The notes beneath the pieces were generated by a model. It was not told the origin of the DNA, made no database searches, and saw only the letters and a program-made list of their open reading frames with translations. A DNA stretch of 64,000 nt. Source: a virus. Made by a program: the position numbers and the translations under genes. How positions within the stretch are numbered: the first letter of the stretch is position 1; every line of letters starts with the position of its first letter. Location of the stretch: positions 36,611-100,610 of the IMG/VR virus record IMGVR_UViG_3300032893_000015. One strand, written 5' to 3'. Below, in pieces: positions 11,716 through 58,814 of this stretch.

Positions 11716-13655
11716 GTGACCACCCTAACCTCGCTTCGTCCCCCGCGTCCCGTGATCAGGATGCTCCCTGGCAGGGTGTCGAGAGCCGCTGCGTGGTGCG
11801 CGACGACGAACGCTTGATCGAACCCCGCCGCCTTCAGCATCCCGGGTAAGTGCCTACCGACGCTCCCCCGGTGCTCCTCGTCCAGGTGCCCGAACGGCTC
11901 ATCGATGCACGCCGTGGTCCAGGGATTGGAAACCCGGGTTTCCAATCTCCCCCTCAGCCACCGGCTCGCCCCCAGTTGCAGCGCCAACCCGGCCAGGTCC
12001 TCCGCCCCTCCGCTTCGCCCGAATTGAAACTCCAACCTGTTGACGGTATTCGGGCCCCGGGGGGCGTGGCACCGCTGACACTCCTTCACCTTCGCGCTGT
12101 CCGGGAACGGCATCCCGCACGCGTCGCACGTCCTGGCCAGTCCCTTCCCCTGCTGCTCCCAGCTCGCCTCGACGCGCAGCCCAATGCCGCACGCGCCCAG
12201 CACGTGGTCGTTGGCCACCTCCTGCACGATCTTGAGCACGCCTTGCGCCAGCCTCCTCTGGGCTCCCTGCCGCCCCAGGATGGTCGCCGCCTCGCGCCTG
12301 GCCTGCTGCTCCTGACCTAGCGTATTGGCGATATCCCGCATCCTCGCCCTGGTCATTCGTAGCGCGTTGATCCGCGCCATCGTCGTCGCCAGCTTCTCCG
12401 CCCTGACGGTCACCTCTTGGCGCAGCCGCATCGCCTGATCCAGTGCCCTGTTCGCCGTCTCCCGCGATTCGGTCATGTCGACGTTCCCCGCCCGACACGT
12501 CGCCACGTACGCCGGCTTCAGATTCTCGAGTCGCTGGCGCATCCCCTGCAGCCTTCCGTGGTCCCGGTCCGCCGCCTGTCTGATGGCCTCGTAGTGATTC
12601 TTCTCCCGCATCCACCGCTGCACCGCTTCCGCCGCCTGCTGCACCTGCGTTGTCACCTCACGAGCGGCTGCGGTGTTCTGCTCGGTACGGCGATTGATCT
12701 CGTCGGTAGCGGGGCACTGTATACCCGCCACGGGACACCGTCCGTCAAACTGCCCTCGTGCCAGCTGCTGCAGCTGCCCGAGGCGTCGGCTCTGCGCCGC
12801 GTGGCCCATCTGCGCCTCCAGGTACATCTGCTCCACTTGCTTGGCGTGCTTTGGGTCCGGCGCTGGCTTCGCTTGCCGTTCCAACAAGACGATTGCCTGT
12901 TGCAGTTCCTCGTATTCGCGTTGGACGGCCAAACCCCGTTCCCTCTCCGCACACGCTTCCACCGCCAACCGTGTATCTAGCAACTTTGCCTCTGCGTGCT
13001 TTAGTTGCACTTCCAACTCGTCGAGCTTCGCCTCCATCTCCTTGAGCGACTGCCCTTCGCTGAGGGCTCTGTCTTCCTGCTCCGAGACTTGGATGGCAGC
13101 GTTGAGCTCCTCGAGCGCCTTGGACACCTGCAGTAGCTTCCCCCGGTTGCTCTCCTCCGCTCGCTCCAACCTATTGAGCCCCGCCCACCCTGCAACGATG
13201 CTCGTGCGCTCTTCGGGCGCCATGAGCACCATGCGCGCGAGCTGACGCTGCCCGAAATAGCAGCTCGCCTCGAAGTCCTCTCGCGTCAGGCCCATGACCT
13301 TCACGATGCACTCTTGCGCATCCTCTTGCGCGAGCACCGTTCCTCCGCGTGCCACCTTCAGCCGCGTTGTCTTTCCGCGCGTGCGCTCGCGCGCGATGTG
13401 CAGGTCTCCGAACGCGAGCTCGACAGCGCCTTCCTTTTCGCCGTCGGTGATCCAGCTGTCCTCGTACCGATGCCGGTGCACTCCGTAGAGAGCGAACCGA
13501 ATCGCTTCGAGCAGGCTCGTCTTCCCTCGCCAGTTGCTGAGCCCCGGGTTGGTCTCGTCGCGTGCTACGACGGCGTACGCCACCTTGCGCAACTCGAGTT
13601 CGTGCTCCCCTCCGAACCGCATCCAGTTGCGCAGCGCCAGAAACGAGATGCTCAC
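11712..13655 (-). CDS. SbcC/Rad50-like SMC ATPase
   Basis: Walker A-like SNWRGKTS, Q-loop FGQ, long coiled coil, central Cys cluster, signature RSGG, Walker B/D-loop IDEPFGHLD, H-loop VVAHH. Confidence 0.88.
   Translation of the reverse strand: MSISFLALRNWMRFGGEHELELRKVAYAVVARDETNPGLSNWRGKTSLLEAIRFALYGVHRHRYEDSWITDGEKEGAVELAFGDLHIARERTRGKTTRLKVARGGTVLAQEDAQECIVKVMGLTREDFEASCYFGQRQLARMVLMAPEERTSIVAGWAGLNRLERAEESNRGKLLQVSKALEELNAAIQVSEQEDRALSEGQSLKEMEAKLDELEVQLKHAEAKLLDTRLAVEACAERERGLAVQREYEELQQAIVLLERQAKPAPDPKHAKQVEQMYLEAQMGHAAQSRRLGQLQQLARGQFDGRCPVAGIQCPATDEINRRTEQNTAAAREVTTQVQQAAEAVQRWMREKNHYEAIRQAADRDHGRLQGMRQRLENLKPAYVATCRAGNVDMTESRETANRALDQAMRLRQEVTVRAEKLATTMARINALRMTRARMRDIANTLGQEQQARREAATILGRQGAQRRLAQGVLKIVQEVANDHVLGACGIGLRVEASWEQQGKGLARTCDACGMPFPDSAKVKECQRCHAPRGPNTVNRLEFQFGRSGGAEDLAGLALQLGASRWLRGRLETRVSNPWTTACIDEPFGHLDEEHRGSVGRHLPGMLKAAGFDQAFVVAHHAAALDTLPGSILITGRGGRSEVRVVT
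11924..11947. repeat. 24-bp palindrome copy 1 (inside the SbcC-like gene)
   Basis: GATTGGAAACCCGGGTTTCCAATC, exact. Confidence 0.95.
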
Positions 13656-13972
13656 GCGTCGACCAGCTCACGGAGAATTACGTCAATCTCCCTATCCTCA
13701 TTCCCCACCAACAGCCCCAAGATCCTCCTCCTCGCTGCTTCGATTCTCTTCGGGTCCTTGATCGCCTGGCGTTGCTCGACGAGCTTCGTCATCTCCCCCT
13801 GCAACTCGTCTACCTGCCTTTGCGCATGGTCCCGCTCTTCGAACAAACTCCGCAACTGACTCTCGAGTATCACGATCAAGCCAACCTTCTCGATTCGAAA
13901 ACCTGACTCGAGTTCTGCCACCCGCTCCTTCAACCGATCGATCTCTTCCACGAGTGCAAACTCGAGACTCAT
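13652..13972 (-). CDS. hypothetical coiled-coil protein
   Basis: Coupled ORF with heptad pattern. Confidence 0.6.
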   Translation of the reverse strand: MSLEFALVEEIDRLKERVAELESGFRIEKVGLIVILESQLRSLFEERDHAQRQVDELQGEMTKLVEQRQAIKDPKRIEAARRRILGLLVGNEDREIDVILRELVDA

Positions 13973-14442
13973 AGCCCCGCCTCCGCCATCGCCTCTTCGA
14001 CGACCTTCGCGAGCAACTCGCGATTCTGCGTATTCGCCTCCGCCACCATACTGGTCACCAGCTCCCTTTCCCCCACCGCCAGCTCCGCCTCTTGCCGCGC
14101 TTGCTCCCGGACCACCGCATCTGGCGCTGTCGACCTATCGATGCGTACGGCCGCCGCCCCGTTCTGCAGGAGCACTTTCTTCAGGGCCTCCGCGCGCTCC
14201 TCGCCTCCGGGTGGTGGCTGCAGTCGAATGATCTCCCCTTGTAGCTTCCCCTCCGGGTCGACCACCGCCCAGTCCCCGATCCCCTTCCCATCGGTCCAGC
14301 AGAACGCCGAGGGCGGCACCGTCCTCAGTCTCCGGGTCCCTCGTATCTCGACCGCCGTCACCTTCGATTGGAAACCCGGGTTTCCAATGTCCACGACGAC
14401 GTAAGGATCGATCGACCTCTGCACCTTGTGCCGGCCTCCCAC
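13969..14442 (-). CDS. hypothetical protein (possibly a separated SbcD C-terminal domain)
   Basis: Lies directly after a short SbcD-like nuclease; the functional guess is positional. Confidence 0.45.
   Translation of the reverse strand: MGGRHKVQRSIDPYVVVDIGNPGFQSKVTAVEIRGTRRLRTVPPSAFCWTDGKGIGDWAVVDPEGKLQGEIIRLQPPPGGEERAEALKKVLLQNGAAAVRIDRSTAPDAVVREQARQEAELAVGERELVTSMVAEANTQNRELLAKVVEEAMAEAGL
14366..14389. repeat. 24-bp palindrome copy 2 (inside a CDS)
   Basis: GATTGGAAACCCGGGTTTCCAATG, 23/24. Confidence 0.95.
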
Positions 14443-14443
14443 G

Positions 14444-57901: not shown

Positions 57902-58369
57902 TCAGCCGCCAGCCGCTTCCTTGTGCGCGGTCGACTTCGCCGCGTGGTACGCCGCCGCCACCTTGCACCCGGCCAGCTTGTGCGCCTGGCTGGCCTTGTC
58001 GTGCATCGTCGCCGCCGCCTCGTGCAGCTCCTTGCCGTCGCGCAGGTCGTCGTCGTCCTTGCCAAACTGCCTTTTCTCCGCCTTGACGGAGAGTGCGTTC
58101 GCTTCGCGGCTCATGTTCTCCGCCGCGTAACTCATCTCCCGCCCGGGTCTGGCCGTCGCCAGGTGCGTGCTGGCCATCTTCTTGTGCTTGTCTGCGGCGG
58201 CGCTGTTGCCGGCCTGCCGGTTCTTCCAGGCCGCGTCTTCGTGGGCGTAGCCGGCCTTCTCGTGCGCCTTCCAATCGTCTGCGTCCCCCGCTGCCGCGCT
58301 GAGGGCGTCGGCCTGCTTGGTGGCTTCCTTGGCCTGCTTGCCGATGGCCGCGTTGCTTTGCGCAATCAT
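57902..58369 (-). CDS. Ala/His-rich helical repeat protein
   Basis: Repeated H..AA..H..AA pattern. Confidence 0.6.
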   Translation of the reverse strand: MIAQSNAAIGKQAKEATKQADALSAAAGDADDWKAHEKAGYAHEDAAWKNRQAGNSAAADKHKKMASTHLATARPGREMSYAAENMSREANALSVKAEKRQFGKDDDDLRDGKELHEAAATMHDKASQAHKLAGCKVAAAYHAAKSTAHKEAAGG

Positions 58370-58770
58370 TGATTCCCCCACGCCGCATACTCCACCTGCC
58401 CGCTCCCGTTGATCTCGAGCAGGGTCATCGGGTTGCTCGGGTCGAACTCGAGCAGGAGCACGCCGTTGAGCAGGACGACGTTGGTCACTCCGTTTTGCGT
58501 GATCCGTATCTTCATGGGCGCCGCCACCCTCACGTACAGCGTATGCGCCTGGGTGACGGGCCCCCCCGTCCCGATGCCCTGCATGATCTGGTAGGCGTTG
58601 GCGGTATTGACGGTGGGGAGCACCCTCCCTGTCTCCACGACGTACGGCTTCTGCGCCGGATTCAGGGCGAACGGGATGGTCGTGCTTCCGCTCGGGAACT
58701 GGCTCCCGTCCGACACGACCGTAGGTCCCGCCGCCAACGTCGCGCCTTGCAGCTGTACCGCCTCGCCCAC
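58366..58770 (-). CDS. hypothetical structural protein
   Basis: AGGAGG RBS; beta-rich. Confidence 0.6.
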   Translation of the reverse strand: MGEAVQLQGATLAAGPTVVSDGSQFPSGSTTIPFALNPAQKPYVVETGRVLPTVNTANAYQIMQGIGTGGPVTQAHTLYVRVAAPMKIRITQNGVTNVVLLNGVLLLEFDPSNPMTLLEINGSGQVEYAAWGNQ

Positions 58771-58790
58771 GCGCCCTCCTTCTCACCCGG

Positions 58791-58814
58791 GATTGGAAAC
58801 CCGGGTTTCCAATC
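58791..58814. repeat. 24-bp palindrome copy 10 (overlaps a stop codon)
   Basis: Exact. Confidence 0.95.

Follow-up and report, generated by a model that had tools for sequence, protein, structure and literature searches.

In temperate phages with known repressors, such as L5 and P1, near-identical dispersed sites of one phage protein (the gp71 stoperators and the C1 operators, respectively) often lie in short intergenic gaps and control transcription globally; these sites are asymmetric and orientation-dependent. The present study concerns a 24-bp palindrome dispersed along the DNA of an uncultivated phage, the IMG/VR virus record IMGVR_UViG_3300032893_000015, analyzed in a window of 64,000 nucleotides that corresponds to bases 36611-100610 of the 100,610-bp record. 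Dispersed phage palindromes have published precedents, the closest of which is the repeat of the Cluster O mycobacteriophages (Corndog and relatives), a 17-bp dyad in 34 invariant copies, many intergenic and about one third in coding regions, whose function and binding protein are unknown and which its authors likened to stoperators (PMC4351075). KorB of the IncP plasmid RK2 is a ParB-family CTPase clamp and global repressor (PMC11790492). The repetitive extragenic palindromic (REP) elements are short, genome-specific, imperfect palindromes just past stop codons, with a GTAG or CGTC head, hundreds of chromosomal copies and a cognate Y1 transposase (PMC3733652).

The palindrome resembles the Cluster O repeat in its invariant inverted-repeat arms, its tens of copies, its mixture of intergenic and coding positions and its cluster-specific occurrence. 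However, the two sequences are unrelated; the Cluster O repeat has 7-bp arms around a variable 3-nt spacer, whereas the elements described here are 18-24-bp palindromes symmetric through the centre, with a private version per lineage and one-direction transcription. KorB and its operator OB likewise form a system of identical palindromes scattered over a replicon, both at promoters and well away from these, and a protein of the ParB fold is encoded here as well. The OB core, however, is 13 bp long with TTT...AAA arms, compared to AAA...TTT arms and a length of 22-24 bp here; KorB acts together with KorA and the partner ATPase IncC, whereas no ParA-type ATPase was found here with PF13614, the one model searched; and the occurrence of the ParB-like genes does not follow that of the sites. 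An L5-type stoperator was rejected, as the present site is a perfect palindrome rather than an asymmetric sequence, and the tyrosine integrase family PF00589 was absent from five genomes (serine integrases were not searched); ParA was not detected either. The elements share with REPs their shortness, genome specificity and position after stop codons, but a REP system with its REP-associated tyrosine transposase (RAYT) was rejected because the palindrome is perfect and has no head tetranucleotide, no Y1 gene and no copies on host chromosomes. Classical ParABS was rejected too, since the sites do not co-occur with the ParB gene across relatives and PF13614 gave no ParA.

The complete record (hereafter G0) carries 18 copies of the palindrome, of which ten lie in the window, at the positions where the original prediction had placed them (Table 1). 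Seven of these ten are exact and three deviate only at the last base of the plus strand (G, A or T); they are spaced 2.4-12.7 kb apart, and both the coding and the intergenic contexts proved genuine. None of 100 dinucleotide-preserving shuffles contained a match. The inner 22-mer, ATTGGAAACCCGGGTTTCCAAT, is invariant in all 18 copies, six of which differ at a single outermost base, and no extra, decayed copy was found in the whole record at up to four mismatches. The site is a perfect palindrome of 50% G+C in a genome of 64% G+C. It is neither a common host repeat of the REP type nor an adapter or library artefact, the two explanations that would have undone the prediction, since the 20-mer core gave only two single, chance-level matches in 185,579 prokaryote species genomes and other, independent assemblies contain related palindromes. 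Of 2.9 million IMG/VR contigs, only those of this lineage have the 16-mer GGAAACCCGGGTTTCC in multiple copies. The exact 22-mer had no match in IMG/VR or metagenome contigs, where the record of G0 itself was possibly masked, and a literature search with the core sequence returned nothing relevant.

Searches of IMG/VR with the family-B DNA polymerase (PolB) and the capsid protein yielded about 37 related contigs, ten large ones of which were taken in full. Eight of them (G1-G8) are transcribed in one direction. In each of the eight, as in G0, the commonest dispersed repeats recovered by an unbiased search for repeated 12-mers trace to a perfect, genome-private palindrome (Table 1); two structurally related genomes, G9 and G10, have no dispersed palindrome. 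Partial contigs add CACCGAAACTCGAGTTTCGGTG, GAAAGTCGACTTTC and others. The usual form is xxGAAA-[6-bp palindrome]-TTTCxx, in which GAAA/TTTC at positions -7 to -4 from the dyad is common to most versions, whereas the outer and central bases vary by genome. The centres seen across G0-G8 are CCCGGG, GGCGCC, AGCGCT, CCGCGG and ATCGAT, and further loci have CTCGAG and GTCGAC. The variation is graded: in G4 the centre is swapped, in G3, G5 and G6 the outer arms are changed, and in G2 and G8 the sequence is fully different. Within a genome, copies can be uniformly perfect, as in G2 (26/26), G5 (26/26) and G7 (12/12). The repeat is a lineage trait.

Placement statistics were collected for 156 copies in the nine genomes G0-G8. 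Altogether 116 copies (74%) are intergenic, compared to 8-16% of non-coding sequence, and 61 (39%, with about 2% expected) begin no farther than 12 nt past a stop codon. Within open reading frames (ORFs), 12 copies occupy the last 20 codons, six the first 20, and 22 (14%) lie deep inside genes. Most palindromes are more AT-rich than their own genome (e.g., 42% vs 61% G+C in G4). A -10-like TAnnnT, mostly TAGGCT, occurs no more than 20 nt downstream of 22 copies but upstream of only three (p = 9e-5), so that the palindrome overlies the -35 region of those promoters. By an unbiased k-mer count, each of the nine genome-specific versions is symmetric through its centre, which favours a site on double-stranded DNA because a hairpin loop needs no self-complementarity. 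The arm variants in G4, G6 and L027/L029 all break a pair, none of them being wobble or compensated, and in G1 the two W positions beside the centre vary independently (6 T/A, 2 A/T, 2 A/A and 2 T/T). In addition, G5 and L029, whose shared genes are 78% identical, have two common junctions, one before the capsid gene and another some 4.6 kb upstream, each of which holds a palindrome of different sequence (CCCAAACCCGGGTTTGGG vs CACCGAAACTCGAGTTTCGGTG), indicating that the sites stay put and their sequence is replaced in concert.

Centre symmetry in nine versions, the lack of compensatory variants, the junction swaps and the scarcity of U-tracts (see below) make the strongly selected site of a dimeric protein, as originally proposed, the best-supported reading. 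We favour it tentatively, at somewhat less than an even chance, in the form that the palindromes are double-stranded DNA recognition sites of a symmetric phage protein that works at promoters and gene ends and whose specificity shifts from one lineage to the next. This protein, dimeric or tetrameric and sequence-specific, would read the 24-mer on double-stranded DNA, and the putative binder gene would most probably belong to the replication/transcription module. Once bound, the protein may punctuate the single long direction of transcription genome-wide, occluding the -35 region of promoters beginning 4-12 nt downstream; at gene ends it could also form a roadblock. Protein and sites would switch specificity together between lineages. 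Three ways in which the palindrome might itself be a promoter were rejected. For a self-contained promoter, the TTGGAA/TCCAAT-like hexamers inside the site are wrongly spaced and no conserved -10 lies at a fixed downstream distance; an extracytoplasmic function (ECF)-type promoter with GGAAAC as the -35 fails likewise; for a phage RNA polymerase promoter, no RNA polymerase domain appeared in Pfam scans of about 70 of the ~130 proteins, including all of at least 280 amino acids.

Several encoded proteins are candidates for this role (Table 1). Homologues of the Fis-type HTH_8 protein, one of the two small helix-turn-helix (HTH) proteins, were detected in nine of nine palindrome-bearing genomes and are absent from both palindrome-less relatives. 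The sigma-70-family factor and the 355-residue protein belong to a module that co-occurs with the palindromes: G9 and G10 are without the module of PolB, primase, DnaB, sigma factor, 355-residue protein and SbcCD, and also without the HTH_8 protein. These absences point to the replication/transcription module as the probable source of the binder, although they form a single correlated block and both contigs are 77% complete. The original prediction had named HTH proteins among the possible binders; the Fis-type HTH_8 protein, the ParB-like pair and the 355-residue zinc-ribbon protein are real, but nothing ties any of them to the site. The further suggestion in that prediction, that the palindrome might steer the TET/glycosyltransferase machinery, gained no support: five palindrome-bearing relatives have no TET/JBP gene, which leaves a link to hypermodification unsupported.

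Other observations weigh against a protein-read DNA site. No binder was found. Palindrome similarity is not mirrored in the recognition helices of the HTH_8 protein, the 355-residue protein and the sigma factor, and G0 and G6 share a 20-bp core of the palindrome but not the recognition helices of these candidates. A sliding-window covariation analysis of 4,194 protein windows gave none above chance (best r = 0.73, about 3.4 standard deviations). Perfect identity over 22 bp exceeds the need of typical operators. In G1, G2 and G7, the dyad of some copies continues into flanks that are not conserved, giving arms of 14-21 bp; in G2 this applies to 5 of 26 copies vs about 0.1 expected. At least five T among the ten bases downstream are present in three copies of G2, and two of these three contain TTTTT. 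Judged from sequence, these extended arms and T-runs point to a hairpin function in at least some places. Finally, permutation tests gave no significant sharing of exact junctions among the nine genomes (p ~0.12, and 0.04-0.24), and conservation of junctions is therefore claimed only for the close pair G5/L029.

The lengthened stems, far above chance, and the T-rich G2 copies would be expected of an RNA-level element, namely a hairpin on the coding strand, with a stem of 10 bp and a loop of 4 nt, which closes a cistron at its 3' end, serves as a factor-dependent attenuator, processing site or 3'-end stabiliser and whose sequence is kept uniform by a phage RNA-binding protein. The location of the genes on one strand, the frequent starts within 12 nt of a stop codon and predicted hairpin energies of -9 to -19 kcal/mol also agree with such an element, which we consider unlikely, though it is the chief rival. 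The self-complementary centre is not required of a loop; the variants break pairs without wobble or compensation, and the W positions of G1 vary independently; the stems are AT-rich for genomes of 61-70% G+C; and about 14% of the copies are deep in genes, for instance those of SbcC, PolB and primase. At least five T within 10 nt downstream were present in only 3 of 156 copies (0 of 18 in G0), leaving 153 without a U-tract, and a terminator scan flagged none of the palindromes. In G5, a palindrome and the conserved capsid promoter TGGACA-17-TAGGTT have a distinct canonical U-tract terminator between them. The window itself has, in the 40 kb scanned, a sole strong canonical terminator at 62324-62355 (minus strand), just upstream of the MuF-ART gene, composed of a 13-bp stem with 10 GC pairs followed by TTCTTTTT, from which it is evident that this phage employs terminators of the U-tract type. 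As a canonical U-tract terminator exists elsewhere in the window and few palindromes have U-tracts, the palindromes are not terminators of that kind, and an intrinsic (rho-independent) terminator was rejected for want of a GC-rich stem with a U-tract.

A REP-like selfish palindrome, spread or homogenised in copy-and-paste fashion by a phage recombination or transposition activity and surviving only at tolerant spots (after stops, in C-terminal tails and in linkers), would account for the perfect identity of the copies and for in-frame copies in tolerant protein regions, given a unit of 24 bp, or 8 codons, and a G0 SbcC that is four residues longer at the palindrome than its orthologues. The absence of significant exact-junction conservation also suits it, as does the turnover of positions at greater distance, between genomes 65-74% identical (G4 and L024 share about two of four). 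The recurrence of palindromes at three module boundaries, from tail fibre to helicase in 7 of 8 genomes, from MuF to scaffold in 6 of 9 and before the Hint-domain (intein-bearing) 996-residue gene in 6 of 6, is suggestive but does not reach significance by permutation. A link to accessory genes was rejected, the palindromes occupying 17% of core-core junctions vs 10.5% of variable-gene junctions. We judge the copy-and-paste account improbable, for the Y1/RAYT family PF01797 gave nothing at E <= 1 in five genomes that are 93-100% complete by CheckV (G000, G002, G004, G005 and G006), with control genomes positive; the flanks have no conserved head tetranucleotide and no target-site duplication; decayed copies are absent in G0, G2, G5 and G7; the SbcC copy of G2 brings no length change relative to orthologues; host-type genomes carry no copies; and the two junctions shared by G5 and L029 hold different palindromes. 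The original suggestion of a tiny mobile element is accordingly weakened, lacking Y1/RAYT, target duplication and host copies, and it survives because the identity is extreme and the positions turn over. Less probable still are loading sites of the ParB/KorB type, on which orphan ParB-family proteins, the binders named first in the original prediction, would nucleate and spread as NTP-dependent clamps, and so silence, compact or mark the phage DNA. The ParB-like proteins match Spo0J, Noc and ParB profiles (E = 6e-17 to 1e-10, Spo0J being best at 6e-17), and a structural model with a mean predicted local distance difference test (pLDDT) score of 77 superposes on ParB-CTP, Noc and KorB structures (Foldseek, E ~1e-8); as modelled, both have a genuine ParB/Noc/KorB fold, and the family occurs in all nine palindrome-bearing genomes. 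The W3 triplet at -6 to -4 around a GC-rich 6-bp centre resembles parS, NBS and OB. There is also the precedent of KorB, with identical palindromes dispersed on a replicon (PMC11790492). Yet G9 and G10 carry the ParB-like genes and a conserved neighbour gene without a dispersed palindrome, and canonical parS-like sites occur instead in G10 (L093, contig position 63869), as one perfect canonical parS, TGTTTCACGTGAAACA, inside a longer palindrome, in G9, as a one-mismatch copy, and in G1 (GGTTTCACGTGAAACC); G0 and G2-G8 have no such site within two mismatches. The GAAA...TTTC arms are the inverse of those of parS, NBS and OB. G0 and G6, with their common 20-bp core, have ParB-like proteins of different subtypes, 19% identical. 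PF13614, the one ParA model tried, was absent from five complete genomes, the ParB HTH domain was not found by Pfam, and box III is degenerate in the G0 paralogues. A ribbon-helix-helix tail on the ParB-like proteins was rejected, its only basis being a ParG match at E = 0.72 and a sequence pattern, and Pfam found nothing in the C-terminal pieces. The ParB-like proteins named in the original prediction are genuine, whereas their tie to the palindrome is disfavoured by the two relatives that have the genes alone.

Table 1. Copies of the palindrome in the window, candidate binder genes of G0 and the private palindromes of the relatives (positions refer to the window)
Feature	Genome	Position	Strand	Copies	Context
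Two tandem ParB-family genes (232 and 203 amino acids)	G0	9490..10796	minus		candidate binders, disfavoured by distribution in relatives
Palindrome, exact	G0	11924..11947			in frame in SbcC-like ATPase (11712-13655, minus), read as RLETRVSN
Palindrome, outermost-base variant	G0	14366..14389			~54 nt past SbcD-like stop
Palindrome	G0	19606..19629			PolB ORF, about residue 823, a C-terminal linker
Sigma-70-family factor (220 amino acids), then conserved 355-amino-acid zinc-ribbon and HTH-like protein	G0	22125..23894	minus		candidate binders
Palindrome, exact	G0	25172..25195			intergenic, 16 nt past stop of 161-amino-acid gene
Small HTH proteins: 76-amino-acid Fis-type HTH_8 and 90-amino-acid Xre/HTH_8-like	G0	25694..26226	minus		candidate binder
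Palindrome, outermost-base variant	G0	32013..32036			intergenic, 29 nt upstream of ResIII/DEAD helicase start
Palindrome, exact	G0	34391..34414			intergenic, -10-like TAGGCT begins 12 nt downstream (coding strand)
Palindrome, exact	G0	38903..38926			first two bases overlap TGA stop of upstream 337-amino-acid baseplate gene
Palindrome, exact	G0	51621..51644			intergenic, 17 nt past stop codon; TAGCCT 10 nt downstream
Palindrome, exact	G0	54174..54197			intergenic, downstream of major capsid gene (54259-55650)
Palindrome, exact	G0	58791..58814			first bases overlap TGA of upstream 119-amino-acid gene; next gene 20 nt downstream
Palindrome ATGGAAWCCCGGGWTTCCAT	G1			12-13	
Palindrome CCACCGCACGGCGCCGTGCGGTGG	G2			26	
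Palindrome GGGAAACCCGGGTTTCCC	G3			16-17	
Palindrome GATTCGAAAAGCGCTTTTCGAATC	G4			17	
Palindrome CCCAAACCCGGGTTTGGG	G5			26	
Palindrome GGTTGGAAACCCGGGTTTCCAACC	G6			18-20	
Palindrome CCACGTAAACCGCGGTTTACGTGG	G7			12	
Palindrome CTGAACATCGATGTTCAG	G8			7	

On the coding strand of G0, most copies occupy the short stretch that separates a stop codon from the following ribosome-binding site or promoter, and in four cases the first bases of the site supply the TGA stop. Three copies are truly intragenic, located in the SbcC-like ATPase, PolB and a 141-residue ORF outside the window. The SbcC-like copy falls between the signature motif and Walker B, and the copy that follows SbcD lies within or just upstream of the 5' end of a 157-residue ORF. 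In PolB, the site begins with T rather than G on the coding strand, by which the TGA stop is lost and the ORF gains an 84-residue tail; similarity of PolB to its homologues stops near residue 815, just before the palindrome. The read-through region spans 19376-19629 of the window, and G2 too reads through two palindromes after PolB. The copy at 25172 is followed by an AT-rich non-coding spacer of 141 nt (25031-25171) that contains the sigma-70-like promoter TTGCCA-17-AATACT. In G2, the palindrome at the matching junction is followed by a similar spacer (about 135 nt), and a second copy of this spacer, with about 60 nt of nearly identical flank, is present elsewhere in that genome. The copy at 32013 marks the boundary between the tail-fibre and replication modules. 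Downstream of the copy at 34391, TAGGCT is followed by a ribosome-binding site and the start of a 544-residue gene; TAGGCT lies 3 nt downstream of the copy at 38903, with the next start codon 21 nt downstream, and 11 nt downstream of the copy at 54174, followed by a ribosome-binding site and ATG.

The record looks complete, as its ends overlap, and its CheckV completeness is 100%. Our own codon-usage caller placed 131-132 of the 132-133 genes of the full record on the minus strand. Pfam identified a structural module of the myovirus type, with sheath, baseplate J and V and a MuF-ART fusion; PolB, a primase of the DnaG type and the helicases DnaB and ResIII; SbcC/SbcD and a protein resembling RecA; and, in addition, ThyX, a MazZ-like diphosphohydrolase, TET/JBP with a glycosyltransferase, the two ParB-like genes and the sigma-70-family factor. 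No close isolated relative was found, as a megablast search of 20 kb against 50,697 phage records gave nothing, and PolB protein identity to isolated phages peaks at only about 23%. Core proteins of unknown function received no annotation from Pfam, PHROGs or PDB profile searches, and no Rfam family matched in the window.

These genomes have further features of their own. G5 (L065-L069) and G6 (L070-L074) contain a second genome-specific repeat on the coding strand, 5-9 nt before ATG, with the sequence GGCATAAGGG in G5 (16 copies) and GGCATGATGGGG in G6 (14 copies), and five weaker copies exist in G0; it resembles a -10 element as in leaderless promoters, and its copies are for the most part not tied to the palindromes. 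A promoter conserved as TGGACA-17-TAGGTT or TAGCTT precedes the capsid gene (compared between L025:8560-8960 and L029:4570-4970), whose leader spans about 190 nt and includes a 32-nt block that is identical between phages only 78% identical overall and may, on that sequence conservation, be an RNA regulatory element. At 62398-64000 of the window (minus strand), continuing at the record start, lies a strictly periodic array of at least 15 units of about 37 nt, with the unit GAGTGGACG-N9-GAACGAAG-N11, which the earlier reader called a TIGR-Tas-like guide array; a link of this array to the palindrome was rejected, as it contains no 7-9-mer of the palindrome and none of its variable segments has a word of 7 nt or more in common with it. 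The region 4264-6106 encodes a MazZ-like dATP/dGTP diphosphohydrolase N-terminal domain that adjoins ThyX and is near the ParB-ParB-TET-glycosyltransferase operon, a neighbourhood that hints at non-canonical nucleotide metabolism; no C5-methyltransferase was seen in Pfam scans of about 70 predicted proteins. The MuF-like head protein at 59666-62317 ends in a C-terminal NAD:arginine ADP-ribosyltransferase domain (PF01129, E = 1.8e-7). Left of the window, at 2343-5351 and 27284-30274 of the record (L005 and L006), are two large intein-bearing genes, one with a splicing domain and a LAGLIDADG endonuclease in a 1002-residue protein (orthologues ~590 residues) and the other with a Hint domain in the 996-residue protein (orthologues ~550 residues).

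A further, speculative and rather doubtful proposal is that the palindrome serves each phage as a private "address label", with a switching protein and about 20 matching sites rewritten together. If this were true, the phage's machinery of transcription, replication or protection could tell its own DNA from that of the host and of co-infecting relatives, and these phages would offer a natural system of orthogonal protein-DNA recognition pairs. If one phage protein does read the sites, at least nine natural site variants are at hand, presumably with matching protein variants, which would be ready-made material on how a binding specificity and its ~20 target sites change together. Such a protein would also account for the way in which a 100-kb genome with a single transcription direction is split into units without the use of canonical terminators.

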